A stretch of DNA of 64,000 nt. It comes from Antedon mediterranea (taxonomy: Eukaryota > Animalia > Echinodermata). Shown in pieces: positions 1 through 60,158 of the stretch; the first letter of the stretch is position 1; every line of letters starts with the position of its first letter. The DNA is taken from NCBI RefSeq assembly GCF_964355755.1, contig NC_092671.1:558001-622000 (forward strand), given 5' to 3'. The notes under the pieces were generated by a model. The model was given only the letters and a program-made list of their open reading frames with translations. It did not search any database and was not told the origin of the DNA. The translations under genes and the position numbers were made by a program.

Positions 1-1116
1 TGTAATGGTATATTGAAACCTGTGTGGGTTACAAATCTGTGATTTACTGTACATGCCTACTCGGTGTAATGGTATATTGAAACCTGTGTGGGTTACAAAT
101 CTGTGATTTACTGTACATGCCTACTCGGTGTAATGGTATATTGAAACCTGTGTGGGTTACAAATCTGTGATTTACTGTACATGCCTACTCGGTGTAATGG
201 TATATTGAAACCTGTGTGGGTTACAAATCTGTGATTTACTGTACATGCCTACTCGGTGTAATGGTATATTGAAACCTGTGTGGGTTACAAATCTGTGATT
301 TACTGTACATGCCTATTCGGTGTAATGGTATATTGAAACCTGTGTGGGTTACAAATCTGTGATTTACTGTACATGCCTACTCGGTGTAATGGTATATTGA
401 AACCTGTGTGGGTTACAAATCTGTGATTTACTGTACATGCCTACTCGGTGTAATGGTATATTGAAACCTGTGTGGGTTACAAATCTGTGATTTACTGTAC
501 ATGCCTACTCGGTGTAATGGTATATTGAAACCTGTGTGGGTTACAAATCTGTGATTTACTGTACATGCCTACTCGGTGTAATGGTATATTGAAACCTGTG
601 TGGGTTACAAATCTGTGATTTACTGTACATGCCTACTCGGTGTAATGGTATATTGAAACCTGTGTGGGTTACAAATCTGTGATTTACTGTACATGCCTAC
701 TCGGTGTAATGGTATATTGAAACCTGTGTGGGTTACAAATCTGTGATTTACTGTACATGCCTACTGTGGTGTAATGGTATATTGAAACCTGTGTGGGTTA
801 CAAATCTGTGATTTACTGTACATGCCTACTGTGGTATAATGGTATATTGAAACCTGTGTGGGTTACAAATCTGTGATTTACTGTACATGCCTACTGTGGT
901 GTAATGGTATATTGAAACCTGTGTGGGTTACAAATCTGTGATTTACTGTACATGCCTACTGTGGTGTAATGGTATATTGAAACCTGTGTGGGTTACAAAT
1001 CTGTGATTTACTGTACATGCCTACTGTGGTGTAATGGTATATTGAAACCTGTGTGGGTTACAAATCTGTGATTTACTGTACATGCCTACTGTGGTATAAT
1101 GGTATATTGAAACCTG
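1..1116. repeat. Tandem minisatellite, 64-65 bp unit, about 17 copies, intronic in the LRP gene and truncated by the window edge
   Basis: Unit TGTAATGGTATATTGAAACCTGTGTGGGTTACAAATCTGTGATTTACTGTACATGCCTACTCGG recurs every 64 bp (1, 65, 129...). From about 705 on a 65-bp variant ending CTACTGTGG takes over. Confidence 0.98.
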
Positions 1117-1250
1117 CTCTAAAGTGAGATGTTACTTTAGGGTTCCATTTTGTTAAGAAACAATTATTTCATATGACATAAAGATATTTATTTATAATTA
1201 AAAAATTCTTGAAGTTGAAATAAGTAAATGAACTTGAGTGTTTATCTTAC

Positions 1251-22041: not shown

Positions 22042-25000
22042 TTATAAGTTATAAGAAAATAATTTAAAGTCCATCAAATATCTTTGATAAATCGAATACA
22101 CTAAATCTTCGGATAAGTTTGAATAATATTTTTCAACCATCATTTGACTTGAAGAATTAGTCCCATGGGTTGATTTAGGAGGCAAAACACCAGAAATGTT
22201 CAATAACTTCATTAGAGAATTGTATTCCTTTTTATCGTAAATATTTTCAAATTTTTCAATCACATCGTATTTAACTTCACACGGAAGACAAAGCTTATAC
22301 ATTTCTCGCCAGTGTTCTTCAAAATCATTTGGAAATGTGTTATCAAAATCGCTTACATACCGTACGAATTCTTTGAAAGAAAGGCTATTGCCTTTTTCAA
22401 GTCCATATTTATCTTGAATCTTTTCAATAAAAATTGATCTAGGAAAAAACTCATCGGCCCATTCTGGTTCTAATTTATCTCTGAATGCACTTAATAATCT
22501 CGTAAAGGGGTTTCTAACAACCATTATTTTGGTAGAATTTTTAAATATGTTAAGTATATCGGGTTTAGTCAAATCTGAAAGTTTAACAGAATGTTCATTA
22601 AACACCCTGTGAACGTCTAGTGGCATCGACTCTACATTTGCATAAATCTTGGAAGATATAAGTAATAATCGTTTGAGAGTGGTACTGGTCGCTTTTGGAA
22701 TGGCACAGAACACAATTCCACTTTTATTGACATAGTAAAGGTGATCAAACCGATGACGAGCGAAGTAGGAATTGTTTGTTTCTTTGTATTGATCTCCGTT
22801 GCACACTCTCCAGATGTTTAGTTGTCTTTCTCGTTGGACTTCCTCAAAGGTGCATTCTTCCACACTACAATTCTGTCAACAAAAAAGAAATGTTATACCA
22901 GAATATTAGGCTTACTATTCCATGCAGAACTCAACTTGTTTCTTTGTGCAACTTAATAAAGAAAATACAATATCAATTATTATTTGGGCAGATGCAAACA
23001 ACTGCAATTTGAAAACCATTCATTTAAAGCAAAAGAAAATAATTAGACTTTGTACCAACTCATCCTGGCTGGCCCATACTGCACCCTTATTTTTAAAATT
23101 AAAAACTTTCAATCTATGATATTCATAAATTACAAAAAGCAATTTTTATGTTTAATTTTGTTAATAATAATCTACCAAGTAATTTCAATACTTTTTGAGA
23201 TAGGGTAAAAGAAACACATTGTCACAATACAAGAACATTAAATGATTTGTGTCCTCATAATTTCAGAACAGACCTGGGAATGAATACCATTAAACGGCAA
23301 GGACCTATATTGTGGAATGATATAAGCAATTTTATTAAGAACCAATGTACCTTAAGTTTATTTAAGAAGACATTTATTCACAGTTTATTATCAACGTATC
23401 AGTAATATTATGTTATATTATTTAATTAGTAGAGTAACATTATTTAAGTTTACTTAAACAATATATATATATAAATGAGCTATGCTCGACGCGATTATGA
23501 GATCATGTTCCGAATATGAGCACTGTTTCTATAATTTACAGTATGATTTATATATATACATATATATGTGTGTGTATGTAAATCTATTACATTTTTTATC
23601 TAAAAGATGATATTCAGATTTTATTACCATGTACTAGTAAAAATAAAAATAACTATATGTAATCTTCATGTTAACCTTCTTAAGAAGTAAGTTAAAAATT
23701 ATCATTTTATGATCAAAAAGAAATATACTATCTAATTTTCTCCTTTATATAAATATATTATTTTATCCAAGGGGTTGCAAACACAAGTGTTCAATTGTCT
23801 TGTTATGTATTGCACCTTTATCTTGTCTTTATGTTGTCTGTAATGTCACTGCACTAACGGGTGACCGGCTAACGAGCTTCGCTCTTACGGTTATCCATCC
23901 ATATAAGTTGTTTATCTTATGTTCATAAATTGAAATGGAAAATAAACTGAAACTGAAACTGAAAATTGGACATTGTTTCTATATTTGTGATTTTCGAAAT
24001 CCAATGATTACCAGTGTGCTAGTTAATCTATAAAATGTAAAATGAAATGTATAGATTATCATCATTATCACCACAAATTAAGAGATAACACTAGACCACC
24101 ATTAACATTTATAAATAGTTAATGATCATACCTTCATAAAATGTTTAACAATAACAGGTGCGTTCTGTCTTTGTACAACCGGTTGAGGATGTCGTGATCT
24201 GTATCGTTTCTGTGTACCTAAAAAGTCAAGACCAATGCAAATTAATTTAAATTCTTTTATGTTTGAAGTTTTTAACATGATACCGTTAAGCTTTCGTATT
24301 CATAATCATCCGTTACCCTTTGGTAGTGTGTTAATACGCATAATACTTTTGCAAATCCTTAAATATTCTTTGATAATGCAACAGAGTAGTGGTAAGGCAC
24401 AAGTGGGCTAAACATTGATATTACCTGTATAAAATGTCCTTCATTTTATAAAATTAGATCTAGGAAACTAGGGTATACATCTATTGTTTAATGACCCATG
24501 CAATTAATAACCAACGTGAAATATATTTGGATTATCGATTTATTTGAATCAGAGGGCGCACTGTGAACTGGCTGCACAAGTTCTCTAGTAACCGAATTAT
24601 ATCTAAAGCCAGCTCTGTCTACACAATCAAACTAATTTGACAAAAAAAGTGTGATGTGCCTAAATATGGTAGTGATATGATGACTATATGCGCACATCAC
24701 ATTTTTTCCAAGTTTGATAGTGTAGATAGAGCTTAACAGGCTACAAAATGTATCTCGTAATCAAAATGTATTCATTACACTCAAATACCATACAATTTTG
24801 TAGGATCTTGGTCGTTAAAAGGAAATTAACTATTCGAATAATATACACTCTTTGATTTTTAATTAGATTTTACTATACGCCTACACTGTTAATTCACAAT
24901 AATGTGACAGTACACAGGATGAACATTAAGAACACCCTGATTGGCTATTACCTACATCAGTTACTTCCGATATTCGCTGAAATCAAATTAAAAAGTCGGT

Positions 25001-29667: not shown

Positions 29668-32600
29668 ATGTGGATGTTTTTACTGTTAGGTTTTTTAACA
29701 ATTAATTCCAGTTGTCATGGACAGGGTAAGTTTTTTAGATTTTTTTTAGTTTTCTTTCCATTATCATTGGCTGATTATAAGCAGCTTTTGATTCATTCAT
29801 TCGCTTTGGTTTAAGAATGGCATATTGAATGTGGAATATTTGAGAAAAACTTGATTTAAACTTACTTAACTCAATATATATTGATTTATGTATAAAATAT
29901 ATTATAATATCTAATATTTTACCCACCCACGTAATACATAGGCGTAAGTCATAAGAACTTACATCGAAGCAGCAGTGCCAAAGAGAATTCGTTCTTTATA
30001 ATTAAAATATCCTCTAACTGTTTCTATTTATCCATTTATTCACTTTAATTATAGTTATTCATATTTACGATAAGGATCACCCATTCATATAATTGATATT
30101 CTAACAAATACAAATTTATCTTTTTAAAGAAACTGTAGGAGGCCTATTTAAGTATTGTATATATTCCATTTCCCACAGGCTATGGATCAAAAACACCCGA
30201 TACAAGAGGACGCCAGTTCGTATTCGGAATTCCGAGTAATGTTCGGCAACCAGACAAAATTATTATGATAGTCACGGGACATGAACTGGGGGCTAACAAA
30301 ATAGACGTCAATATTCCAGGCCTCAGATTCCAAAGATCTCAAATGATAAACGGGCTTGAAGAAGCGCGTATACTTCTACCCCCGACAGCAGCAGCTCATG
30401 GATGTGCTATCCAAAATGGAACCGTATTGGTTTCTTCAACGAAAGACGTGTCCGTGGCCGTCTTAAACGATATTGCAAAATCAACAGAAGCCTTTCTAGT
30501 GATTCCTGTGGATGCGTTAGGAACGGAATACTTCGTTGCTTCGTACGACCCACTCCCGGAAGAGTTCTCAGAAGTAGTGATAACCGCGACTATGGATAAC
30601 ACAAGAATAAAGGTTACATTCCAGGCACCGGTCACATACAACGGTATGTCTTACTCGCCTGGTGATATATACACTTTCACACTTCCTCGATTGAGAAGCA
30701 TTCAATTTCAAAGTCATATGGATTTGACAGGAACAAGAATCCAATCAACCGCGCCCGTAGCAGTAGTTAGTGGCAACACGTGTACGCTTGTTCCAGGCAG
30801 ATTACCAAGATGTGACCATTTAGTTGAAATGGTACCACCTGTCCCCACTTGGGGAGGTATGTTCACGGTAATGCCATTTTTAAATCGTACATCTGGTTAT
30901 ATCTTTCGAGTTATCGCAGCACGTGCTAGAACAACTGTTCAAATCTCTGGTACATCAGTTTATCTCCAGAACCAAGGCGAGTTTCAAGAGTTTAATGTTC
31001 CGAGCGATACAATTACAACCATCAGTGCTAACCAACCAATTATGACAATCCAATTTTCAAAGGGACGAGATAGTGACGAAATCGGCGATCCGTGCATGAT
31101 ATTAATCCCACCCGTTGAACAGTACGTCAAAGACAAAGTTACTTTTGGTACATTCAACATGTCAGGTGGTGATTACTTTTCTCCTTATGTGAATATGATG
31201 ATATCATCTCCAGGTATAGTGAGTATGATTAACATCGCTGCTATTCCCTCCATGACGGGGACAACGTACGTCCCTGCTGCAGGAAAGATTGTGAGTTACG
31301 GAGGAGGAAGGTCAATGGCCTTGATGCAAGGAACACATACGATTGTGAATCCATCACCGGGCAATTCTTTCACTGCAATCACATACGGAATTGGTCCAAT
31401 GACGTCATATGGCTTTCCAACCGCTTACAACCTTAAAAAGTTGATATGTATTCGCAAAGATCCGACAACAGGTTAGACATTTCATTACTTTGATTTTGTA
31501 ATATCACATCATTCTAATGCTTTGTAATTTACTTTCCTTTCACTGCATCGGGCTATAATATTTCACGTGATCACTAAATACACGAAATGGGAAAATACAC
31601 ATATAGCGACAATCATTTATTATTTAAAATATTGTGGCAATTAACACAGAAGTTAGAATTTAGATCATTCGTATAAACCTTTTCGCCCAATTCTCACTAT
31701 TGGTTTTATTTCATAATAACTAATAAAAACATTGTTTAATTGCAGGTGGTGATGTCGAATACGTATGTCCTCAACCAGTTGACCCACCAATGCGTAATCC
31801 ATGTACCGGAACAAATGGAATACCGAGTCCAAGTGCACGGCAGGGCATGCAGAATCCAAATTCTAGGCCACCACCGAATCCTAATCCTAACCCAAATCCT
31901 AACCCAAATCCAGGTTCAAATCCTAATCCTAACAAACCAAATCCAAGAGCAGGAGAAGGTAATAATGGCGATCGGCCCGGGGAGCGGCCACCTGCACCCG
32001 GTACCCCCGGTGCAGGTATACCTGGTATGATGCCAGGTATGGGTATGCCAGGTATGGGTATGCCAGGTATGGGTATGCCAGGTATGGGTATGCCTGGCAT
32101 GGGAATGCCTGGCATGGGAATGCCTGGCATGGGAATGCCATGTAGTCCAGGAATGATGATGCCTGGAATGACAGGAATGGGAGGTTGCATGCCCGGCATG
32201 GGAGGGGCTGGTAATGCAGGTGTGGGTGTGCCTATTATGCCTGGAGTCGGTCTACCTGGACAAGCTGGTGGAGGCCCTGGATTCGGAGATGTGCCAGGAT
32301 ATGGATGGGCCTGGCGAACACCACCACCTCGGTTTCCAATCATTCCAACAATACCTGAAAGTAAGTCCTTTGAAATTATATGAGTATTTATTAGGAGCAG
32401 GATCCCGTTGCAAGGTCCGAGGTAAAAATTAAAAAAAAAACTGGTATTCAGAAGCTTTCTTTGTACTTCTGAAGCAAATAAACACAAATTACTAGTTAAT
32501 CTCGGTTCTTACTTGGACGCAATGACGTAAGCGCAACGCAATTGAGTTGAACAATCACGACGCGATCATCCGAACTGTTTTATGTATGTCTATTTTTAAT

Positions 32601-32899
32601 TTATTGCTGAACATGTTTATAGATTATATATCATATATTATGTTTTATTTTATCAAACCTGTTAGTGGCGGTTTTATCGCTGTTAGTTTTGAACAAATAA
32701 AATTACATTTTAAAAAAGGTTTTTTTTAAAAGCCATTAACTTCCACGCTTAATACTTGAACATTACATTTCCACTTCTTTGTTTAGATTGTTATTCAAAG
32801 AACCTTGTTATAGTGGTAGCAATCACACCAGCATTTCTGATCTTGCTGGTGATGACTATGGCCATGTGTATCGTTGTCAATCACATGAAACAATTGTAA
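29668..32899 (+). CDS. Type I membrane protein: signal peptide, IgGFc-binding protein N-terminal domain, Pro-Asn and Pro-Gly-Met repeat stalk, C-terminal TM helix; about 692 aa (P58-like by architecture)
   Basis: Exons 29668-29725 ([19 protein letters not shown]), 30179-31471, 31746-32360 and 32787-32899, all introns phase 1. Domain motifs [79 protein letters not shown] segment [25 protein letters not shown]. The 3' end could instead splice at GTAAGT (32896). Confidence 0.88.
32021..32140 (+). repeat. Coding 15-bp tandem repeat encoding (PGMGM)n
   Basis: CCAGGTATGGGTATG and CCTGGCATGGGAATG units in frame within exon 3. Confidence 0.9.
32501..32575. mobile_element. MITE family B fragment
   Basis: GGTTCTTACTTGGACGCAATGACGTAAGCGCAACGCAA matches the left arm of the 34877 copy. 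Confidence 0.55.
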
Positions 32900-34876
32900 G
32901 TAACATTATCTAACTATATTTCGTATGACAAATCGGGTGGTTTTGTGGACCTTTCCGTTCGGCAAATTTCCAAGAATAACTGCCAAGATACGAGAGATAC
33001 GTGGCGGCAATCCATGGAAAGACAGTTTCTCATTTCCAGCATGATTGGGACCAATTTATTTATGGAACTGGGATCAATAACATAAACATAAGGATTTACA
33101 CTTTCTGTAACTATTCTACTAATACTTGGTAACTAAAAAAAATGAACGTTGTGTTTAGTATTGTAGAATATGTTTTTGTAATAAGTACATATATATTTTT
33201 ATATTTTTTTAAACATAGTTCATCCGTTTTTTTTCCATATAAGTTCTTTTTATAATGTTTATATGAGGTCCCCTTGATTGTCAGCTTATGCTGTTTTGAG
33301 TCACTCTCACTAAATAAGGTTTAATAAATAAAATAAATAAACTAATTAAAACTACTAAGGCATACTAATAAAATTCGTTACAAACGAATTAAAGCGCTTC
33401 TACTTTTGTTCTTATTTCCTTGTGTTGTTAAGGCGCTTTTGATTCAGCTACCATAACAGCATGAAAATTAAAAATTTCATTTTCACTCATTCTTCAGGTT
33501 ATTTTCAAACAAAAACAATTAGGCCTAGTTCATATAATTTCATGTAATTGACGTGTTCCGAGTTCAAACTAATTTGGCAGTGGTTAATGTTTTCAAAAGT
33601 TCATAAATTGAGTTTTGCCAAAGTCTCTAATAAGTGTTGTTTGTTTTACAGGAAAGCATAACTGCACGGAATGCTGGGACATTTCTACACAGAGAAAAAA
33701 ACAAACAAGGATTGGATTTATCGATGTAAAAATATTACTGTAATAAGTAATTTCGTACCACATTAAAATAAACTTGCCGATGGACTGGGTCCTTTTCAAA
33801 TATTTAAATTAAGGCAATTAAATACAACTTCTTGACCAAAAACGCAATTCTCATTTGACGCAATTTTCATTCCTAAGGTAGGCATTAAGTAGCTTACTAC
33901 TCATACGCACTATCTTCTATTCTTTAATAATACATGTCTTTATGTTAAAAAAAAAAAGAACGAATATAGTATATATAAATGTATGTTATTTTGATTAATA
34001 TATTGTTTTTAAAAGAAGAAAGCGATTTATGTTTTAAAGAGTAATTTACCTTGATTGGTGAATTTCCTGTTATTACTAGCAGGAAACAAACATATTACTG
34101 CACTGCACGATTTAAATAGCTGAGCATAACAACAAATAAATCTACAAAACAATGACGTCACATCTACTTAATAAAAACAAAACTTAATTCAACCTTTTCT
34201 TTGTATTTATTGTCGAATTAAATTTCTTTTAAATTAAAATGTGCAGTGTATCTCTTTCAAAATGAATCTGTATTATATTAATGTTTAATTATTAGTTCCA
34301 AGATATTATGTAAATATTTATCCAAAGTTGATCTTTATGTCGATGATTCTAAAACATATAATGTATACGGTATTAACTTAGCTTGATGCTAGCTGATTGA
34401 AAAAAATTTGTTTAAAAATATTTTTAAGACTAATTTAGAATATTTTTTCTATATTTGTAAATATTATTTAAGGAATAAAATTGTTTGTTCTGATATTAAA
34501 AGTAATTGATACGTTTGAAGTTGATCTTTGCGAGATAATTGTTGTTATCTTAGTAGCGTAGCGACCATGACGTCACGAGCAGAACTATTAAACGATAATG
34601 CGCATGTTTGTTGTACGAATGATTGTGTACGTTTTAAATTGAAAGGTTCTACGTGATGAATCAATTTGTAAATTAGAAGTCTTTATTTAATTATCTCTTT
34701 CGGCATGGACTTACAAACATCGCACAAAGTGTTTCTTATTAAATTCTAAAAATTTTATTTAGGACCCAACTTTAAATCTGAGGCAACATGATGATGAAAA
34801 AAAAAATTGCGGTCAACAACAACATTATTTCGCTGAAAGTATGATACCGGTACTACCATTTCTCTGTCACTATAAA

Positions 34877-36892: not shown

Positions 36893-37622
36893 ATGTCTAG
36901 AGGAAAAACAGAGAGCGGTGAAGGACTTTTCTCAAACTTATTTACCACAAAACCTACAAAGGGTGTAACTAAACAGCGAGGGAAATCTAAAGATCGGTAT
37001 CACGAGGACCCACCTGAGCCGCTCCCGGGTGAGTATGACTCCGACGAGGAAGGGCACTATCATAGTTCGTCAAAGGAAAAGTCATTTGGTTCAAAATCAA
37101 AAATGCAAAGCCTATTCACAACCCCTAATCATGACAAACCTGAACATCGTGCCAAGTCCAGTTCTGCAAAAGTCGAGTCGAGTCGGGGTCGAGAAACTCC
37201 CAAAAAGTCTAAACTACAGTCGCTTTTTGGAAGCGCTGACGATAGTAAATCAAGCAAAAAGAAATCACAAGATCGATATCATCAAAAGAATCCACATGAA
37301 AAGAAGCCTGAAAAGGGAGAATCAAAGGGAGGAAAAAGCAGCGGACTAGGCGAGGGATTATTTTCCAGTGGTAGTGGAACTATAGCCGGAAACAGCGGAA
37401 AAACAAAAGTTGGAAAATCAAAAGGTCACTCTTCTGGACGGGTAGGTTTCAATGAGTTACTTTGATTAAACATTAAGTAAATGAACAAAAAGATTGTGGA
37501 GCTGAAAGTGTAGATTTCGAGTCAATTCAAAGTAAGTTATTACAAATCATCTTAATATTTTTCTTCATTTTTTTCAGCAACAGCCAGCGAAAGGTGCTAG
37601 TTTCAGCTTCCCTTCATTTTAA
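36893..37622 (+). CDS. Uncharacterised Lys/Ser/Gly-rich, probably disordered protein, about 197 aa
   Basis: A long GC-richer ORF follows an acceptor; ATG at 36893 to donor CGG|GTAGG at 37441 (phase 0). Exon 37578-37622 encodes QQPAKGASFSFPSF*. Peptide repeats GEGLFS x2, KSK(M/L)QSLF x2 and KS(K/Q)DRYH x2 show synonymous divergence. Confidence 0.7.
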
Positions 37623-44592: not shown

Positions 44593-47500
44593 TTAAGGCG
44601 GTGGTAAATTATGATTTTCTAAGCCAAGAGGTGAAAGATTAAGTGGAACTAAAGAACAAACACAGCTGCTTGGTATTGCTACCCATTCTACAGATATTAC
44701 TGGCTTTGATGGGTCAGCACATGATTTGATTGTCACTGCTCGTCGCCATGCGTATTTCTGTTGACATTGACCAAATCCAAAGTTGCAGTATTTGAATCTG
44801 AAAATAAATAATTTTAGAATAAACTGATTATTGTTGCGGACAACACTCATTGGCTAAATAACTATGATCTTGATGAACCTATCTTTTTTAAACAACAGCG
44901 CCACCAATAATTGAAACATATGAGAGATATTTGCATGATTGAGAGTGGCAAAAGAGCACATGTTTATGTTTATCCACAAAAGTACGTTAAACTATACATT
45001 TTTTAACCAGGTGTCTAGACAATTATTTTTATTGCAAAAATAAAAACAGCATTGTGCCTTTCTAAAGTTATTATTATTGAAATAAAACTTACATGCATGC
45101 TTTGACTTGGAATGACTGTGCAATTTTCCCCGGTACTTGAAGCACTTGAACCACATCTCCATATTTATTATACGCTTTTGTGACAAGAATCTGGAAAAAG
45201 TGTTCTGGGCATGGCACACCAGGGTTGCGAAATGGCATAACAGGGATTGGTAGGGGCCCAAAACCTGGCATACCAGGTACACCGGGACTTCCATTGGGAC
45301 CTTGATCACCCGGAGGGCAATAATAAAACCCAACAACTTGTCCTCCATTATCTGTTGCTGGATTGAACGGAGTTGGTTCTTCTTCGGTTGCTGTAAGTAT
45401 ATTTAAACAATTAATATATAGCATTCTTTGTAATCCACCGTGTTGATGTAAGTATATTTAAACAATTAATATATAGCATTCTTTGTAATCCACCGTGTTG
45501 CTGTAAGTACATTTAAACAATTAATATATAGCATTCTTTGTAATCCACCGTGTTGATGTAAGTATATTCAAACAATTAATATATAGCATTCTTTGTAATC
45601 CACCGTGTTGATGTAAGTATATTTAAACAATTAATATATAGCATTCTTTGTAATCCACCGTGTTGATGTAAGTACATTTAAACAATTAATATATAGCATT
45701 CTTTGTAATCCACCGTGTTGATGTAAGTACATTTAAACAATTAATATATAGCATTCTTTGTAATCCACCGTGTTGATGTAAGTATATTTAAACAATTAAT
45801 ATATAGCATTCTTTGTAATCCACCGTGTTGATGTAAGTATATTTAAACAATTAATATATAGCATTCTTTGTAATCCACCGTGTTGATGTAAGTAGAAACT
45901 TCTTTTTTTAAAAAAACTTGATTTTTAAAGTATGAAGTTATCGTTTTCTAGTTATAACATAACAATCATTTAAACTTACGGGTTTTCTGACAAATGTACC
46001 CTAATTTTCGATTGCAGTTATAATCATCCCATTTATAATCATCAACGGATCGCAATCGAACGCAATTCTGATTTGTTCCTCCATTTCGGCCACCTTGTGC
46101 AAAATCATAAAAGGTTGGTTGCTCTCCAGTTACCCATTCGAAGTTGCGCTCGCGGCGTCTATCTGATAGCCCGATCCAAAGATCTCCCGCGTATAGGTCT
46201 CTGGCTCTCTGCTGGACGAAACTTCCGATATCTGGATCTGTCAAGACTACGAGGTTGCCATTGTCGTTTTCACAAGACCTTTGAGCTTCTTGGAATGTCA
46301 AAGCTGGACTCAAAGCGAAGCAATAGCACTTTCCACCATGTGATTCAAATGGTGGTCTACATTCTGAGTAAAATAATTAGTATCATAAAATAATAATTGC
46401 TTTTGAACTATGTAGTGTGCGAGAAACACCACTAAATATTCTCTGATCAGCTTGACTAAACTTTGTTTACAACTTACTTCCATCAAATTCTTGAGTGACG
46501 GATGACCCACCAGGCCCACCTACACCACCAGGTCCACCAGCACCGCCTTGTCCTCCCGCAGGAATGTCTAACCTCTCACCAACATACGTATTTCTGAATC
46601 CACCATGGAAAGCAAACGGTCTATATGTAAAGAAATATTGCTGCAATTATGTCTATAATATAATATTTTAAAAGTTTCTAATATAAATGTAGGTACAGGA
46701 GGTTTCGGTGTACTAAGCATTAGCATTAGAAATTATACATCTATTTATTTAGTTTATTCGTTTCTCCTCATTTTGTGAGACTTATCTCATTGCTCGTTTC
46801 CATGACGTAATCTCCATCTTGTGGTCTCTTGTTTGTTTGTTGATTTCTAATATCATTTTCCTGGTTATAATCTAATTGTTAAATCTCCTTAGTTAAAGTG
46901 AAAACATTTCCCACCCACATATGGATGAAATGGATGAAACATGCAAATTAATATACTTACGTCACCGGTTCTGGGCTTGCGTATGGCTCGTCATTGTTCA
47001 ATATACACTCGTAATCTTCTTTTATCTTTCTCAGGACATTATCTCCAAGTTTACTGAAAAGAATGAATGTAGATAACTATATAAATTTCGGTTGACATTA
47101 GTGTAACCTGAAGTTTCTCAAACCTGCTTAATGCAATATTGTTCAAGATGAATAAACTTACGCTATACATGACGACAAATCTTCAACTGCTCCCCAACAC
47201 GATACCACCAATAAACACGTGAAAATGGTTATTGCATTTACTCTCTGTGGAATGTTCAATTTACAATTAAAGGTAATAACATGAAAATGTTTTTGATTAA
47301 AGTTATCAGTAATTGTCAACTTTATACAACAACAAACTTTAAGTAAATATCTTACTTAAGAATAATTTAAGAAATATTTCTGATTCAAATATAATGTAAG
47401 CCAACATAAGCCAATTAATATTCATTTCATTTAATTTCATTATTTATTTGGTCTATTTAAGTATATGCAAAACAAAAAAAACTGAAATTGGGGAGACCAG

Positions 47501-49138
47501 GGTCAACCTAAGTGAACTTAATCACTGTAGCTGAGCCGGTGACGTAAAGCGGACGCATTGCAGATGGAATATTTTGATTCAGCAATTATTATATGTAGCT
47601 ATGTAGCGTTTGGAAGATGTATCATAATAATATTATTATGTAAGGAATGTTTATATGACAGATATTTATCATTCATAATAGAAATGGCATTATTCTATAT
47701 AAATTATGTTTCATTGTAACCACACGGCACGCCTAATAAAAGTTATAAGAGGTTTGAAGTAGACAACAGTACAATTACTCGCTAGCGTGTGCGTACATTG
47801 TTCAACAACACTTGTCTACCTCTAGTGTTTACAGATTCGTGCAGAGATCTCATTGCCCTTGTTTCACTAATAATGTATTCGGATTTTAAGTTAATTCTTC
47901 CATAAGTTAAACGATTATAGAAACCACATGACATGATAGAACATTATTTGTGTTTGTGTTTACATGGGCGTTTAACACAATGATTAATGAAAGCAAAGTA
48001 TTTCCGTTGAATATTCATTAATTCATTTGTTTTTAATAATTATTTTAGGTTAATACTCTAACTTTGCTGTATGTTCATTCATTCAATAGCATGTAGGCCA
48101 TTGGTGCAATAGCATGTAGGCCATTGGTCCAATAGCATGTAGGCCACTGTTCCAATAGCATGTAGGCCACTGGTCCAATAGCATGTAGGCCATTGGTGCA
48201 ATAGCATGTAGGCCATTGGTCCAATAGCATGTAGGCCACTGGTCCAATAGCATGTAGGCCACTGGTCCAATAGCATGTAGGCCGCTGGTGCAATAGCATG
48301 TAGGCCACTGGTGCAATAGCATGTAGGCCACTGGTCCAATAGCATGTAGGCCACTGGTCCAATAGCATGTAGGCCACTGGTCCAATAGCATGTAGGCCGC
48401 TGGTCCAAGTACAATAATATACATATATTTAAATTGGAGTAGTAGTAACAGCAAATATGCGAATATTAGTTTAATTTCTCGTTCAAAAACAAAATAGGGG
48501 TAGTATAAAGTAATTTATCAGCTAATTATGTCATTTTCCTAAATAAAAATTGTACAAATGTTACCAAAAAAGGTATCGCTAAACATGTGATAAACATTGG
48601 CATGTTCTCAACAACAAAAATAAATCAAGTAAGTCCAAGGAAGTTAGGTTTGAAACAAACTAACCATCGGCGTGGTATTTATGCAAGATTCTATACTAAA
48701 GTAAACTGTAAACTATTAAAAACTTAAGTATTTTATTAAGCTTCAACTGTCTATAAAAAATAAAAGATCTATATTTTAGAGATTCTCTAAAAGCAAAATA
48801 ACACACGGTAATATAAAAGCTAAAACGTTACGCCTGTTATTTTTATTATCTTTTATTGACAACTGGGAATAACAGTGTCCAACATGGCATACAAATAGTA
48901 GGCGATACAAGCATGAAAATAGCAATAACAAACTTAAATAATATTTTCACTAACTTTAAGAACTTCAAAAACAAATTTTGACAGTAATAAAGGTTCAATA
49001 GAGAATAAAAACACAAGGCTATGACAATGTGTGTGTGCAGTAAATGGGCATTCACATAATGCGTGAAATTTGCCGCATTTACAAAGAAGTTCATCAACAA
49101 CGATCTAAAAGTAAAATAATTTAAAAAAAACATACCAT
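44593..49138 (-). CDS. Secreted C-type lectin / Spaetzle-like cystine-knot fusion protein, about 402 aa (paralogue A)
   Basis: Exons 49138-49136 (ATG|GTATG, inferred), 47244-47162 (signal peptide RVNAITIFTCLLVVSCWG), 47053-46961, 46620-46478 (Gly-rich), 46363-45980 (CTLD: C..CY..A...C...L..WIGL..W..C..WDD..C..YIC), 45390-45093 and 44797-44593. Knot region reads CPEH...AYNKYG...Q.F....C....C......CQQKY......EWVAIPSSCVC. All phases join into one open frame. Confidence 0.85.
45391..45893. repeat. Tandem minisatellite, 55 bp, about 9 copies, built from a splice-acceptor region
   Basis: Unit (C/A)TGTAAGTAYATTTAAACAATTAATATATAGCATTCTTTGTAATCCACCGTGTTG starting at 45391, 45446, 45501 and so on. Confidence 0.97.
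45980..46363 (-). CDS. C-type lectin domain exon (symmetrical phase 1-1, 384 nt) of paralogue A
   Basis: Long-form CTLD cysteine pattern, WIGL motif and WDD in place of WND. Acceptor TTTTACTCAG, donor GTAAGT. Confidence 0.92.
48084..48407. repeat. Tandem minisatellite, 23 bp, about 14 copies
   Basis: Unit CAATAGCATGTAGGCCAYTGGTS. Confidence 0.97.
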
Positions 49139-49602
49139 GTCTTTTTTTGGTTCACAAAATCTAAGTTGAAATTGTTCGTTTTCAAGTCAATCAATTGATG
49201 GTGCGGCGGCCTACTGCACTAGAACATGTATCTGCAACAAGTTGACAAAGCATAGTAAGTACCGCCTTAATCTGACGGTTAGCATACGGTGTTGGGAGTT
49301 AAGTACCGAATGAATTCATCCAATCTATATCCCTCAAAGACTGTTCGATATACACTCAAGTGTTTGATGACCTGTTTCACTGTAACTTATCCATCTGGGA
49401 GAAGTTCATGGTAAATCTCATTATTAGTAAATTAATTAAAACTACTGGGCGTGATTTAAAAAATAGTTGAGTAGATGTTTGATATTTTCGTTCGCCTACG
49501 TACTGTATATTGTGGCAGTGTGTTATTTTCGTTCACATACGTACTGTATATTGTGAAAATTTCTTCTGAATTCAAAAATAAATGTAGTGATTTACTTGAT
49601 AC

Positions 49603-51188
49603 AATAAAAGTATTGCTAGAGTTTCTTACGCATACAAAAGTATTGCGAGAGTTTCTTGCGCATACAAAAGTATTGCGAGAGTTTCTTGCGCATACAAAAG
49701 TATTGCGAGAGTTTCTTGCGCATACAAAAGTATTGCAAGAGTTTCTTGCTCATACAAAAGTATTGCGAGAGTTTCTTGCTCATACAAAAGTATTGCGAGA
49801 GTTTCTTGCGCATACAAAAGTATTGCGAGAGTTTCTTGCGCATACAAAAGTATTGCGAGAGTTTCTTGCTCATACAAAAGTATTGCGAGAGTTTCTTGCG
49901 CATACAAAAGTATTGCGAGAGTTTCTTGCTCATACAAAAGTATTGCAAGAGTTTCTTGCTCATACAAAAGTATTGCGAGAGTTTCTTGCGCATACAAAAG
50001 TATTGCGAGAGTTTCTTGCTCATACAAAAGTATTGCGAGAGTTTCTTGCTCATACAAAAGTATTGCGAGAGTTTCTTGCTCATACAAAAGTATTGCGAGA
50101 GTTTCTTGCTCATACAAAAGTATTGCAAGAGTTTCTTGCGCATACAAAAGTATTGCGAGAGTTTCTTGCGCATACAAAAGTATTGCGAGAGTTTCTTGCG
50201 CATACAAAAGTATTGCGAGAGTTTCTTGCTCATACAAAAGTATTGCGAGAGTTTCTTGCGCATACAAAAGTATTGCGAGAGTTTCTTGCGCATACAAAAG
50301 TATTGCGAGAGTTTCTTGCTCATACAAAAGTATTGCGAGAGTTTCTTGCTCATACAAAAGTATTGCGAAAGTTTCTTGCGCATACAAAAGTATTGCAAGA
50401 GTTTCTTGCTCATACAAAAGTATTGCGAGAGTTTCTTGCTCATACAAAAGTATTGCGAGAGTTTCTTGCTCATACAAAAGTATTGCGAGAGTTTCTTGCT
50501 CATACAAAAGTATTGCGAGAGTTTCTTGCGCATACAAAAGTATTGCGAGAGTTTCTTGCGCATACAAAAGTATTGCGAGAGTTTCTTGCTCATACAAAAG
50601 TATTGCAAGAGTTTCTTGCGCATACAAAAGTATTGCGAGAGTTTCTTGCTCATACAAAAGTATTGCAAGAGTTTCTTGCGCATACAAAAGTATTGCGAGA
50701 GTTTCTTGCTCATACAAAAGTATTGCAAGAGTTTCTTGCGCATACAAAAGTATTGCGAGAGTTTCTTGCTCATACAAAAGTATTGCGAGAGTTTCTTGCG
50801 CATACAAAAGTATTGCGAGAGTTTCTTGCTCATACAAAAGTATTGCAAGAGTTTCTTGCTCATACAAAAGTATTGCGAGAGTTTCTTGCGCATACAAAAG
50901 TATTGCGAGAGTTTCTTGCTCATACAAAAGTATTGCGAAAGTTTCTTGCTCATACAAAAGTATTGCGAGAGTTTCTTGCGCATACAAAAGTATTGCGAGA
51001 GTTTCTTGCGCATACAAAAGTATTGCGAGAGTTTCTTGCTCATACAAAAGTATTGCGAGAGTTTCTTGCGCATACAAAAGTATTGCGAGAGTTTCTTGCG
51101 CATATAAAAGTATTTTGAGAGTTTCTTGCATATACAAAAGTATTGCGAGAGTTTCTTGCTCATACAAAAGTATTGCGAAAGTTTCTTC
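49603..51188. repeat. Tandem minisatellite, 30 bp, about 53 copies
   Basis: Unit CATACAAAAGTATTGCRAGAGTTTCTTGCK; it accounts for all four long ORFs at 49475-51395. Confidence 0.99.
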
Positions 51189-52893
51189 TGGAGAAAGAAT
51201 ACGTAAATTATTATTCGATTCTCCTTCTTCTGTTAACATATATTTTTGTTCCAATTTTATATTGTTGAATTTGAATTTCTTACAAGTTCTCACAACTGTG
51301 ACTGACAACATATTACACTGAGAACATATGCTATTCCAAGGGTTTAGCAACCATATATATTTTTTGAGTGACGTTACTATATTTAATTTGGTCAAGAGTA
51401 CTTCATCGAAGTTGGCTAATGAAGGTCAAAAGTGTATTTTATTATTTTCATTATTTATATACTTATTTCTTCATGGTCAACCAGTCAATGATTTGTTTAG
51501 AATCCTTTTCTAAATAACAGTATTGTACTATGCTATGGTTACACAGAGAAATGTGTCCAGAAGAATGTCCAGAAACAATAGCTTAAGAGAAGAAGAAATG
51601 GTGAAAAATGCTTTAGGAGAGTTTAAAATTCTGTAATATATATGATTTTTGATTAAAACTGATTAATATCATCTTCAAAATTACAATTCATTTCTTTTTG
51701 TATAATTAATAAAATACTCATAAAGCCATGATATGGTGTTAACACTAAAACAATGATAGGGTTACTGCTAATAATATAGGAAGCTTTCAATTTTGCCGAA
51801 TCTTAAGTGAATATCACCTTGTATAATATTAGGTTCTGTTGTACAAAAATAGAACGCTCTCAATGATAAGCAGGAAGAAAACATTAATAATAAACACAAA
51901 TCTGATAAATACTGTATTGTGTTTTTATTTCTATTGTGTATAAAGTGCGGCAACCATATTAAGCATGTTTTACAGAAACATGACAAGCACAAAATTAAAT
52001 AACAAACGTGCAAAGAGGATTGATCTTGTGAAATGGAAAGTTCCGTACAATTTAATTGATTGGATTTTAGTATAAACAAGATTAGATTGAGTCTTGAAGG
52101 AAAATTACTTTTTCCATTCACTTCTTAAGATATGGAAAGTTAATCAAGAAAGTACAATTAGGGTTTACCGGTTCTTTTACTCACTGGTGGTAAGTTTATA
52201 AGCAAGGATGTACTTAAATTTGGTACGAACTAGTTAAGTACTGACTTCTGACTTAACAAACAGCTTTGGAATATTATTATTCTTAGAAGAATACAATATG
52301 TAATTATTTTTATGGTTTTTTAACATACCACTTATGACTACCTTTGTACTAAGTTCGTTTGTTTCTTTACGAAGAGTCATTTTCTAAGTACCCTAAACCA
52401 GCTTACTTAAACACACAAGATATGTTAGTAGCTATCGACTCTGATTGTGTTTTGTTGATTAGATTATGCTATTTAGGTCGAGTACTCCTAAAGGAATTTG
52501 TTAATTTTAATTGTTACCACGCAAACCACATGACTTGATGAATGCTTAATGAGATAATAAAAGTTAGTAGATATTAGTTAATGATATAAAATAATTTGCT
52601 TAATCTTACCACATTCTTTACCAAAGACTGCAGTATGGTCAGAGTATTTACGTTAAAGATAAATTATAATGTTACATTTTGGTTAAAACAATTCCCCTCG
52701 TTTTAATAACTTTAATGAAAAGATATATAGGACTTATATATATATTAGCAATGAAATCACATTTGTATGCTTATTCATCTTACTGTTATTAAGTTTGTTA
52801 TATTATTTATGTATGTGAAACAATTAAATAAATGAATGAAAGAATTTTCAACGAAATGCTTTTTAAAAGTCCAATATACTATATATTACTTAA

Positions 52894-55527
52894 TTACCAG
52901 CTGTAAATTTCAGACCTTCTACGGTTTTCTTCCGCCAAAAGAAATAGATCTCTAAAAGATGGAGCTTGGAAGCATTCACACGAACATGGTAATGCAATCC
53001 ATTCGATCTTTAATACTGGAAGTAGACGATTGAATGTTGCATGGTGTTCACAGTTCTTGACGATCAAAGCTCGTCTCCAACAATACTTTTGAATGCAGCT
53101 TCCAACCCCTCGGTTACACCGTGCATTACTGTAAAAGAAGACATTACTGTAAAAGAAGACATTACTGTTTTCAGCATTCACGTTTTGTAACTCTCAATAC
53201 GAGATTTGTTTTAAATTTAAAAACAAATATCCCTTAGTAGAAGACACATTTGCTACAGTGTATAGTTGTTGAAAAAAACTCTTTCCTAACACATTTATTT
53301 CATGATTTGAAAGGACTTACCGACAAACGGTGATCCTTGGTTTTTGTAAAAGATTCATAGCAGGATTCGGATTATGAGATTGAAAGAGCCGAACCTTTTG
53401 TCCATATTGGTTAAATGCAGAGTCAATAGGTCTCATTCTTGTTCTACCAGGACACATTTCACCAGGGACATATCCGGGAACAAAGATACCAGCATTTCCT
53501 CCATTTCCACCGTTACCACCATCTCCACCTGCACCACCATCCATACACGGCGCTCCTTGTGCACCGGGTCCCCCAGCCCCTCCCGCTCCTCCGTCACCAC
53601 CACTGCCACCAAATCCGCCGAATCCTCCATTACCACCAGTTCCTCCCGTTCCTCCGCTTCCACCAGGAGCCGCCCCAGCACCTCCACTACCCCCGTTACC
53701 ACCACTTCCTAAAGAAAACATTCACATATTATTTTCTATTGTCGTAATATTTGTGGCAAATGATCCTGATTACATCATTTTATGATTGCTATATTTTAAT
53801 ATAATAATCATATGTGGTTTTACCTCCGTCTCCAAATACTCCAGCGTTTCCTCCATTACCACCGTTTCCACCCGTTCCACCTGTATCGCCTACTCTGAAC
53901 GCGGGGCCTGCATTACCCCCATTACCACCGTTACCGCCATTCATTGTATCAATCACATACTGCTCTGGCCTAAAGTAAATAAATAATACATTTAGAAAAA
54001 AAACTATTGGATTTGAAATCGATTCAATATTGCGACCTTTATCTCTAACATTGTAGTATTAATTAGAATTGGAGAGTGATTGATTTGGAAAAAAAAGTAT
54101 AATTTTACGTCACCGTTGCTAAACTTCAGTTGTTTTTAAAAGAAGAAAATAAGTAGTTCTTTCCAAAGACCTTTTTAACCAACAAGACAATGGTGTAATT
54201 AAAAGCAAGCATACGGTGTTCAATGATGAACCAAGTTGATATCGAGGCGTACGTAACTCAACGACTCTTGACAACATACGTGAATAGAAGTACTCAACGT
54301 TTTAAGTTTCGTTTTAAGTTTATCAAGTTTACTATCTTTTTTTTGTAATATCATCAGTATCAATAGTATTACTTGTCTTCGTTTTTATTGAACGATTAAA
54401 AAGGCACATTGCATAATAAGAAAGTCCGTCCTACATGAATGTGTGTCCCCACCACCACAAATTGAGGCATTATATACACGCACGTGTGGCTTGTGCAACA
54501 CACACAACGGTAACATTTTAACTACTGTATTAATCGAACTATTTATGTTAACCAATCAAATAAATTTTATAACTTACGATATAGTATCTGGGCTTTCAAA
54601 CGGTTCGTCTTCGTACAGACATCCATACCTTTCTTTAACATCTTGTATAAATTCTGCAGTTAATGATGTACGTCTAGATAAAACAAAACACGTACTTAAT
54701 TAATAATATCGGTAATAACACCTTTAATTTTATGCCGGACATAAATTATAATAATGACGAATACATATGACATAGAAATAGCCTGTAGATAAACTTTATT
54801 CGTCAAAAATTGAATTTTTTTTTTTTAAATTGTCTTCCTTGGCAAGATAGGATATGAAATATATTTAAAATACGATACAAAAATATAAACATTGCAACAT
54901 TTAAAATTCCGAATTAAAAGTTCTCTTAAATTTTGAATTAAAAGTTCTCTTAAATTTTGAATTAAAAGTTCTCTTAAATTTTGAATTAAAAGTTCTCTTA
55001 AATTTTGAATTAAAATTGTGTATTGGGTTTGGAATACAAATGATTAATGTTGTATGTTACCTATAATGTGTACTTATGAAACAAAACCAAAATGATATAA
55101 TACCAATAATAGCAACAACAACCAAGCAATACCAATCCCTTACCCTATACATAAAAGCAATGATTCAAACGTTGGGTTTCGTGGAGGCAAGTAACTGTAG
55201 TATGGGTCTGGGCCGACGGCTGCACCATTTACTTGAATACATAATATACATGTCAAGAAAGCCGACAAAATCTAATTTTAAAATCAGTAAAACAATATAC
55301 AATTAGCCTAAAAGTTTCAAATATATTTCATATTTACTTCAGCTTCCGCTATAATCCATATAGCAATAACATGTGATACTCGCGTGTATTATTTCGAGTA
55401 AACTTCGAGTTAAGCTAAATTTTATTCACAAGTTGAACTTAAAACTATAAAGCAGTTATACTTATCCAATAAATGAAAAAAATAAAACATTTATAATAAA
55501 ATAAAAATAATTTACCGTTTTAAACAT
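52894..55527 (-). CDS. Secreted Gly-rich Spaetzle-like cystine-knot protein, about 334 aa (paralogue B)
   Basis: Exons 55527-55516 (MFKT), 55271-55144 (ILSAFLTCILCIQVNG, signal peptide), 54673-54578, 53969-53824, 53708-53321 (GGx repeats, then CPGRTRMRPIDSAFNQYG...QKPRITVC) and 53128-52894 (CNRGVGSCIQKYCWRRA...EWIALPCSCEC). Phases are consistent and intron phases match paralogue A. Confidence 0.87.
54911..55015. repeat. Tandem repeat, 24 bp, about 4 copies
   Basis: Unit GAATTAAAAGTTCTCTTAAATTTT. Confidence 0.95.
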
Positions 55528-58634: not shown

Positions 58635-60158
58635 TTATTGGCCACAACATCCTATTTTACTAGGCAATGTAACATCTCCAACTGGGGGTAGGATAGCAAC
58701 TTGTCCGTCTCGTTCTTTGTACTCTTCATATTTCCTAATCTTTAGTTGGTAGAACAACATGCCGATGCCAAAGACGGCGATTAATCCGCCAAAGAATCCC
58801 GCCCAAAGTGCTGCTACAGTCTCTGGCGTGAAACTGCTACCAGTTTGTTCTACATTTGTATCTGCAAGAGAGAATAAGTTCCAACATTACACGAATATTT
58901 TCATTCATTTCATTACATAATCCGTGTACAACAACTTCTAAATGAGTGAATTGATGGATTGAAGTACCCGGGAATAAGAAGATATCTTTTAAAATCTTCC
59001 TGGAATAATAGGACATAATTTGTTTTATTCGCCAATTTGTATTCCTATCGTGTTTATTTTTCTTTATCTTTTATACTGGACGAATAGTTAGAAACCTAAA
59101 AGCAAGAGCGGTATTTGTTGGATGGTGTGTTGTACTAGTAGTAGCTAGTGTGATAGTGTTATGGCGGAGTAGTAGTTTGAGGTAGTACAGTAGTAAACAA
59201 ATATGTAATCAATAGCATTACAAGTGATAGTAAACTAGTAGCATTGTTGTTACATATTAACTAGTGTCTGGCCATGAAATAACAGTGATTTATAAATAGA
59301 AATATTTGGAATTATGCCAACATATTACATAGAATACGTACAATGGAATTAAATCAACGTAGGCGTTTTGAGTTACTCGAGTATTGTAGTTGGTACCAAC
59401 AAATCTATCTCGTGCCATATGCTATACTGTTTTAAACCTGCTTTAAGCAGGAGGAAATTCCCTAATGTTTAATCAAATATGTATAATCATATTTTGGAAT
59501 AATGCCAAGAAATGGCGGTAACTTGAAACGCGAAATCATTTCCAGGATTTAATATCACAAGACGTAGTAGGCCTAAATGGATTAACAGAAAAGGATAGCG
59601 TCTTTCAAGCCATGCTTTGCAATGCATGCATTTGAAAGTGCTAGTGTATGTTACCCGAATGCTCTGCAAAATTCCTATCTGGGCGTTTTTATCGATTTGA
59701 TTAGATTTTTTTAAATTTTAGTTCTTTTCACCATTGAGAATCAAGCCACTGATACCAACAACATTAAATAATTTGCCTTTTGATGAATTGGCAGGATTAA
59801 AAGTAGATTATATGAGTCCTTAGGCCTATATGAACATTTTTGCCAATCTCTGCAATAGGGCTACACAACCTGTCGATATGTCTAGGCCTACATAGGCTAC
59901 AAATTTCTGTGCGAGGCTGTGAGCTAAAATTAAGTTTTGTTTTCGTTTTTCACAGACATTGTACATGTGTACCATAATTATTCACACAACCTGCGTGAGT
60001 GATAGGTTTAGCATTCAATAGAAGCAATAACCGTGTCTTTTATTAAATCAAGTAGAGTAGGCATAGTGGTTCCCATGCTTACCTTTGTCAGTCGTGTTGT
60101 TGGCTTCCACTAATAGTAACGTCCAACAGACGTATATGGTTCCCAGTAATGTTTTCAT
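58635..60158 (-). CDS. Uncharacterised small type I membrane protein, about 100 aa
   Basis: Exons 60158-60083 (MKTLLGTIYVCWTLLLVEANNTTDK) and 58861-58635 (DTNVEQTGSSFTPETVAALWAGFFGGLIAVFGIGMLFYQLKIRK...KIGCCGQ*), phase 1 junction. Signal peptide, N-glycosylation sequon, TM helix and basic stop-transfer residues. Confidence 0.75.
59620..59785 (+). mobile_element. Degenerate third copy of the Penelope-like terminal repeat
   Basis: GCTAGTG..TGTTACCCGAATGCTCTGC...CATTGAGAATCAAGCCACTGATACC...AATTTGCCTTT aligns by eye with 57545-57695; the ribozyme core has decayed. Confidence 0.55.

Follow-up and report, generated by a model that had tools for sequence, protein, structure and literature searches.

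A C-type lectin-like exon in one of two tandem neurotrophin/Spaetzle-type cystine-knot genes of the feather star Antedon mediterranea

A 64-kb stretch of the genome of the feather star (crinoid) Antedon mediterranea (assembly GCF_964355755.1, contig NC_092671.1, positions 558,001 to 622,000; hereafter the window, 64,000 nucleotides (nt) in full) carries two neighbouring genes on its minus strand, here called A and B. Their products belong to a family whose members are likely secreted and whose architecture almost certainly ends in a neurotrophin/Spaetzle-type cystine knot. In gene A a single exon encodes a C-type lectin-like domain (CTLD) that has no counterpart in B. Exon models of both genes were rebuilt from the splice sites of the window and then compared with RefSeq proteins. 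Gene B consists of six coding exons running from 55527 to 52894 (334 residues in an open frame, all introns GT-AG), and its model is identical over the full length to XP_071943700.1 (P0001). For gene A, six exons between 47244 and 44593 are certain and give 401 residues, with one more exon upstream; the introns are GT-AG, the frame is open, and the model equals XP_071943699.1 (P0003) from residue 47 onward. Both RefSeq entries are annotated as uncharacterised proteins of A. mediterranea. The exons, numbered from the first letter of the window, are as follows.

55516..55527, minus strand: B exon 1, 12 coding nt with a phase 0 donor, in the model identical to XP_071943700.1
55144..55271, minus strand: B exon 2, hydrophobic core of a likely signal peptide and start of the prodomain
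54578..54673, minus strand: B exon 3, 96 nt, phase 2-2, homologue of A exon 3 encoding a prodomain helix
53824..53969, minus strand: B exon 4, 146 nt, phase 2-1, first portion of the Gly-Gly-X (GGX) tract
53321..53708, minus strand: B exon 5, 388 nt, phase 1-2, remaining GGX tract and knot Cys I-II
52894..53128, minus strand: B exon 6, knot Cys III-VI, then a conserved helix at the C-terminus
47797..47934, minus strand: A exon 1 of the RefSeq model (uncertain), mapping residues 1-46 of XP_071943699.1
47162..47244, minus strand: A exon 2, 83 nt, phase 0-2, hydrophobic core of a likely signal peptide
46961..47053, minus strand: A exon 3, 93 nt, phase 2-2, prodomain
46478..46620, minus strand: A exon 4, 143 nt, phase 2-1, what is left of the GGX tract (18 residues)
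45980..46363, minus strand: A exon 5, 384 nt, phase 1-1, an entire long-form CTLD
45093..45390, minus strand: A exon 6, 298 nt, phase 1-2, acidic linker rich in Pro and Gly, then knot Cys I-II
44593..44797, minus strand: A exon 7, knot Cys III-VI and tail

The end of B exon 4 is the intron position at which A holds its CTLD exon. Over 45900-47431 of A (the 5′ exons and the CTLD) and over 52700-54940, most of B, the window agrees with contigs of public genomic runs, and in one public run no letter differs across either stretch; since the public contigs agree with it, the assembly is not an artefact in these two stretches. Contigs of one public run, presumed to be RNA, continue unspliced through introns of A and B, and no splice joint was found in the contigs of four of the five public runs listed, over compared stretches that did not include the minisatellite intron of A. 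A 319-residue CTLD-less form of A was absent from the protein search results and the cluster of XP_071943699.1 has a single member, which is weak negative evidence. At its 5′ end, B shows a hydrophobic 12-mer at residue 5 (mean 2.75). The RefSeq exon 1 of A places 46 residues ahead of the hydrophobic core, and this core begins by residue 4-13 in four of the five relatives of A; the fifth, P0004, has none and looks 5′-truncated. An alternative first exon of A would be a 12-nt candidate at 49094, of the same size and donor as exon 1 of B.

The intron phases run 0, 2, 2, 1, 2 in B and 0, 2, 2, 1, 1, 2 in A, and the four internal shared introns fall at matching residues (CI, PV/TI, DG and the second knot Cys). 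With general intron-phase frequencies, five equal phases would be expected by chance with a probability of about 0.002. Once its CTLD exon is removed, A matches B in BLASTP with an E of 9e-29 (29% identity over 275 columns, the Gly-rich part being unmasked), and an alignment restricted to the prodomains reaches z 9.8, with 0 of 500 shuffles as good. At the DNA level the two loci show no convincing likeness (BLASTN top match E 0.083). The knots of A and B are 37% identical, compared with 71% between B and its orthologue in the crinoid Anneissia, so that the A/B duplication long predates the separation of the two genera. The phase-1 intron falls inside the Gly tract of B; between this intron and the knot there are 84 residues with 52% Gly in B and 59 residues with 19% Gly and 25% Pro in A, and B has 83 residues within GGX runs against 18 for A. 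By gene structure and protein alignment, A and B are an old tandem paralogue pair that has strongly diverged.

A sequence-only reading of this locus had described the two genes as a Spaetzle-like pair differing by one shuffled lectin exon. Its structural statements agree with the rebuilt models: the common minus strand, the phases, the exon sizes (93/96 and 143/146), the three quoted pairs of knot motifs (AYNKYG/AFNQYG, CQQKYAWRRA/CIQKYCWRRA and EWVAIPSSCVC/EWIALPCSCEC) and the presence in A only of a CTLD exon of 384 nt and phase 1-1, at an intron common to both genes. Paralogy likewise stands, but a difference of a single exon does not, given the knot identity and the GGX counts above. As to the suggestion that skipping the CTLD exon would yield an in-frame, B-like isoform of A, the frame would indeed be kept, but the skipped product would not resemble B because A lacks the long GGX tract.

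The extent of the family was delimited by a protein search with the last exons (97 candidates), a HMMER search with a three-knot profile over 1.84 billion representatives and a search with a wider profile (3,132 candidates). The last-exon search returned three of its 97 candidates. The three-knot profile gave four matches at E ≤ 0.001, all of them among the six members presented here, and no sea-urchin or acorn-worm protein at E 0.001 in the same 1.84 billion representatives. With the wider profile, six candidates were family members, all from two crinoids: A, B, two further Antedon paralogues (XP_071941220.1 and XP_071941221.1) plus a pair from Anneissia japonica, of which P0002 is the B orthologue (the 71% knot identity given above) and the other is orthologous to P0006 (68%). 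No non-crinoid protein was returned by these searches, which rely partly on shared words or a small profile and may miss distant members, and a metagenome scan gave 142 pattern matches with none confirmed. The data suggest that the four Antedon genes are linked to one another, and likewise the two of Anneissia.

Each of the six members combines a prodomain and a Gly-rich part with a knot at the C-terminus, and the CTLD (PF00059) is found in A alone. GGX runs span 83-105 residues in five of the six, against the 18 of A. In RefSeq the Anneissia members are called "co-chaperone p23-1-like" and "glycine-rich protein 23-like", which are probably low-complexity mislabels; Pfam scans of the members returned no match backing either name. 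A side feature of B and its Anneissia orthologue is a shared C-terminal helix of about 20 residues with a triple Arg (52894-52960), missing or much changed in the other members.

The six knot cysteines and a conserved Gln are invariant in all six proteins. For the superfamily definition and the sites that part its families (Pro13, Trp130 and an aromatic residue at 133) we follow Wilson 2009 (PMC2772990), and the residue register was inferred from that text together with a BDNF alignment. In this inferred register the Spaetzle Pro13, five residues before Asn18, is absent throughout (Ile, Ile, Val, Gln, Arg and Gln in its place, with Pro one place earlier in both B orthologues), and position 133 is Ile or Val in every member instead of the Spaetzle Phe/Tyr. 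Position 130 is also Ile or Val in all six, not the neurotrophin Trp. Asn18 is present in six of six and Pro136 in four, as in Spaetzle and sea-urchin NT2. Judged by these sites, the six proteins belong to the neurotrophin/Spaetzle superfamily and to neither family as defined, because Pro13, the aromatic 133 and Trp130 are all missing from all of them. The term "Spaetzle-like" of the sequence-only reading is therefore apt for the superfamily but not for the family; the modelled fold is nearer to NGF, although the Pfam scores favour Spaetzle.

Scans of five members with the Pfam Spaetzle profile PF16077 (cut-off 27 bits) gave 34.8 bits for P0005, 24.1 for A, 19.6 for P0004, 13.4 for the B orthologue and no match for B; P0006 has no precomputed Pfam family. 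The NGF profile PF00243 reached 14.3 bits at best, under its gathering score of 27. An NGF-type fold is predicted from the AlphaFold2 model of the A knot (predicted local distance difference test, pLDDT, 78), whose template modelling (TM) scores to NT-3/NGF are 0.69-0.75 and whose fold matches are NGF (Z 9.8 over 89 residues), coagulogen (6.8), IL-17 (6.4) and Spaetzle (5.5 and 4.2). An Atlas search with the same knot placed a Spaetzle cluster first (0.91; structure row TM 0.80) and a mixed NGF/Spaetzle cluster second. When solved structures were searched by sequence, the three-knot profile found no match at E ≤ 10 and a six-row profile found five weak ones, to BDNF and NT-3, with E of 0.06-0.15. 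According to PMC2772990, Spaetzle genes had not been found in deuterostomes as of 2009, and PMC7056985 places them, among sampled ecdysozoans, only in panarthropods.

The number of knot cysteines varies, with seven in A, nine in B and eight in three other family proteins, and one extra Cys between knot Cys IV and V is kept in all six members. The two further cysteines of B, at IV+5 and V-2, may pair together, which would leave one spare in A and in B. Neurotrophins carry a furin-type site just before the mature knot. In the crinoid family, RxxR was found within 40 residues of Cys I in none of the six members. In four of them, among these A, a Lys or Arg lies 5-7 residues ahead of Cys I (in A exon 6, a single Arg six residues upstream), and the two B orthologues have neither Lys nor Arg in the 40 residues before Cys I and no RxxR before the knot.

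The tract ahead of the knot in B comprises about 110 residues of Gly-Gly-X, in runs 9-15 residues long broken by short turns, and its counterpart in A is the 18-residue remnant and a Pro-rich linker. GGX motifs mark glycine-rich polyproline-II bundles, as described in PMC13243192. By one of the two methods used, the tract of B is predicted to form a polyglycine-II helix bundle like mycobacterial PGRS domains: in the Atlas model, residues 88-200 align at TM 0.92 (107 residues) to a 113-residue actinobacterial protein, and a PE/PGRS cluster is among the Atlas rows matched by the Gly tract. The full-length model of B is of low confidence (mean pLDDT 46) and gave no Foldseek match at E ≤ 0.001, nor did an Atlas search by features with the whole of B return a usable match.

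The CTLD exon of A matches Pfam Lectin_C PF00059 with an E of 7.5e-21 (75.3 bits, cut-off 22.6) and encodes the WIGL motif and seven Cys. It has the marks of a shuffled module, being a single exon with equal end phases, with bounds that match the domain from the first Cys to the domain end, placed at an intron shared with the paralogue; no second CTLD was found among 2,021 segments of the window. Symmetric exon shuffling of this domain is textbook knowledge. In sugar-binding C-type lectins, EPN or QPD plus WND form the calcium-site motifs. The A domain has no EPN/QPD; GRN aligns to the EPN/EPS of solved domains and WDD stands instead of WND, and because of these replacements the usual calcium-dependent sugar binding is unlikely. 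The word "lectin" used for this exon thus holds in the sense of a C-type lectin-like domain, whereas sugar binding is doubtful.

The knot tree, built from the six sequences with no outgroup and no rows left out, has the form ((B, B orthologue), A, (P0005, (P0004, P0006))) with supports of 92-95, and midpoint rooting joins A with B. Of two other placements of A, one is narrowly rejected by the approximately unbiased (AU) test (p-AU 0.045) and one is kept (p-AU 0.11). The prodomain of A aligns to that of B at z 9.8 and 8.8 and to those of other members at 4.1 or less. A CTLD-less ancestor takes one step against two or three for eight of the nine root positions, with a tie when the root lies on the branch of A. 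Very probably, then, the CTLD was gained in A; a gain is favoured because only one of six members has the domain and eight of nine roots need fewer steps, and the earlier proposal that a lectin module was gained or lost after duplication can be read in the first of its two directions. The alternative, in which the exon is ancestral, A is the earliest branch and a single loss occurred in the line to all other members, we consider very improbable. With the root on the branch of A, gain and loss do cost one step each in this outgroup-free tree, and the A prodomain is weakly linked to a third member (z 4.1). However, just one of nine root positions permits this history and midpoint rooting disagrees with it, the prodomain of A is far nearer to that of B than to those of the remaining members, and the long GGX tract would also have to arise after A had branched off.

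For the role of the two proteins we propose that A and B are knot-dimerised extracellular scaffold proteins and that A gained its CTLD by exon shuffling into the phase-1 intron, a combined reading to which we give an even chance; a structural rather than a signalling role is held with about the same confidence. The CTLD exon would have landed in the phase-1 intron that divides the glycine-rich tract of the family, where the inserted 128-residue domain would have split the Gly bundle, the halves then decaying to the 18-residue remnant and the Pro-rich linker. The knots may pair as in all solved neurotrophins, and the odd Cys between knot Cys IV and V, kept in A and B, could covalently link the chains. 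B would stay full length, uncut from its prodomain, and the CTLD of A might bind protein, mineral or an unusual glycan, but not mannose or galactose through the usual calcium site. What is displayed ahead of the knot would thus be a glycine bundle in most members and a CTLD in A. Heterodimers of A and B had been suggested earlier; a predicted complex of the two knots, made without alignments and with no controls folded, scored 0.02 against a mark of 0.34, which speaks neither for nor against such pairing.

Several points weigh against this proposal. AlphaFold2 left residues 81-210 of B unmodelled (pLDDT 22-30), and the predicted bundle comes from the Atlas model alone. The start exon of A, and hence its signal peptide, is uncertain. 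The tree is one of six sequences without an outgroup in which one alternative placement of A survives, as given above, and no A orthologue from Anneissia was found in the family searches. The basic residue 5-7 positions before Cys I in four members could be cut by a trypsin-like protease, as in Spaetzle, and the conservation of the B knot across genera (71%) would also fit a receptor ligand.

The main rival reading is a protease-activated cytokine like Spaetzle or the pro-neurotrophins: the knot would be cut loose to bind a Toll-like, Trk or p75 receptor, with the CTLD of A tying activation to recognition of microbes or damaged matrix. We regard this as possible but unlikely, and cutting followed by signalling suits A better than B. 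The Spaetzle profile outscores NGF in every member that matches either, one of the five scanned members passes 27 bits, the Spaetzle cluster comes first in the Atlas for the A knot, and the basic residue is there in four of six. An extra Cys beside Cys V in three members and Pro136 in four point the same way, both being tied to Spaetzle-type dimers in PMC2772990. Yet near the knot the B orthologues are free of basic residues, none of the six has RxxR in the 40 residues before it, the Spaetzle Pro13 and aromatic 133 and the neurotrophin Trp130 are missing throughout, and the CTLD of A lacks the usual sugar motif. The long GGX tract is moreover kept in five of six members; to our knowledge no Spaetzle or neurotrophin prodomain has one. 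A more elaborate version, in which the family is a third branch of the superfamily in crinoids, the closest to a deuterostome Spaetzle, and the lectin-like exon made A an Arg-cut sensor-plus-cytokine signalling through Toll-like receptors, strikes us as rather improbable. It would join to this a prodomain that carries a folded polyglycine-II bundle, replaced in A by the shuffled exon, and that low estimate applies to the whole taken together.

A could instead be a matrix protein of the skeleton (stereom), converged on the CTLD and proline-rich layout of sea-urchin spicule matrix proteins and dimerised by its knot. Its CTLD without the usual sugar motif is indeed followed by a 59-residue linker at 25% Pro, and PMC5831733 takes a C-lectin domain together with a proline-rich one as the definition of spicule matrix genes. 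The same source, however, calls these genes urchin-specific and absent from an adult Antedon arm transcriptome; the likeness is known only at the level of a shared domain type, the Pro-rich linker of A is short and its five relatives have no CTLD, so that we find this quite unlikely. Less probable still is clotting or wound sealing after the manner of coagulogen, where a protease cut would expose surfaces through which the knots polymerise, with A fastening the clot to cells or microbes. Outside the neurotrophins, the A knot finds its best fold match in horseshoe crab coagulogen (Z 6.8), which also heads the rows for full-length B, though weakly (E 0.0035), and basic residues precede the knot in four of six members. 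Against this, NGF fits the A knot better (Z 9.8), and the match of B to coagulogen lies above E 0.001 and comes from the low-confidence model.

Among known systems the neurotrophins (NGF, BDNF and NT-3) share with the crinoid proteins the six knot Cys, the conserved Gln, Ile/Val at 133 and the absence of Pro13, and NGF/NT-3 are nearest in modelled fold. Unlike them, the crinoid family lacks Trp130 in all six members and a furin site adjoining the knot, and has the extra Cys between IV and V and a GGX tract or CTLD before the knot. Ambulacrarian NT2, as described in PMC2772990, has in common with the family Asn18, Pro136 (in four of six) and a knot split over exons. Spaetzle (PF16077) is the best Pfam match and shares the order of signal, prodomain and knot, Asn18 and Pro136, along with CC before Cys VI in three crinoid members and a single basic residue before the knot in four of six. 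In contrast to Spaetzle, A and B remain under the Pfam cut-off, A has no Cys beside Cys V, and the solved Spaetzle knots fit the A model worse (Z 5.5 and 4.2) than NGF does. The knot type of horseshoe crab coagulogen is shared at an identity of about 20%. Coagulogen polymerises and is a precedent for non-signalling use of this knot; we know of no GGX tract or CTLD in it. Sea-urchin spicule matrix proteins present a CTLD beside a Pro-rich stretch in a secreted echinoderm protein, as gene A alone does here, but their definition in PMC5831733 includes no cystine knot, which A has. The GGX run pattern is found in PE_PGRS, ALK/LTK and snow flea antifreeze protein bundles as well, a likeness of pattern and not shown homology; unlike in those bundles, the crinoid tract is joined to a cystine knot.

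At this locus exon shuffling can be cleanly polarised, and the incoming domain seems to have taken the place of an older one instead of simply joining it. The locus also brings to light a crinoid neurotrophin/Spaetzle-type family fitting neither family. One member scores above the Pfam Spaetzle cut-off while PMC2772990 knows no deuterostome Spaetzle, which bears on the timing of the Spaetzle/neurotrophin split. It is likewise relevant to the question of endogenous ligands for the Toll-like receptors of echinoderms. Should the role of the family be structural, it would be the second case, after coagulogen, of this knot building material. Neither the family nor the fusion of CTLD and knot was found described in the open-access literature searched with the unaccented spelling of Spaetzle, a weak negative, and genome-paper supplements may list the genes; exon shuffling of the CTLD itself is already known.

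Repeats are prominent in and around the two genes. The intron after the CTLD exon of A is filled by a minisatellite (45387-45894, 55 bp × 9.2) whose unit is a copy of the splice acceptor of A exon 6, with AT replacing AG in 8 of 10 copies; one upstream copy (first base 45500) retains AG but is out of frame by 110 nt. In B, an 18-nt duplication at 53124-53168 creates two in-frame acceptors for the last exon, 53146 and 53128. Use of 53146 would insert six residues between knot Cys II and III, and RefSeq uses 53128. A short, very high-copy element lies upstream of A exon 2 at 47412-47555, with a summed contig depth of 20,000-63,000 in two public runs against 27-47 alongside. Between B and A, a 30-bp × 52.7 minisatellite (49606-51187) has several frames open over 495-599 codons and is taken as a non-coding repeat.

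Elsewhere in the window, a Pro/Gly-rich gene at 30-33 kb on the plus strand is not a third paralogue, since the knot profile finds only the four A/B exons in the window. This gene, at about 30180-33800, has an IgGFc-binding exon of about 1.3 kb (Pfam E 1e-61), an exon of Pro/Gly/Met repeats and, near 32790-32896, a likely transmembrane exon; it has no knot and probably encodes a type I membrane protein. On the minus strand, positions 1-15000 likely hold the 3′ part of a megalin/LRP-type gene, with exons whose motifs we take to be of the LDL-receptor class A, EGF and YWTD types, and one long exon at 22042-22875 encodes a carbohydrate sulfotransferase (Pfam Sulfotransfer_2, E 3.7e-41). On the plus strand, 36896-37465 is an open frame rich in Lys, Ser and Glu that matches no Pfam family, and a likely transmembrane exon is located upstream of B at 58635-58886 on the minus strand.

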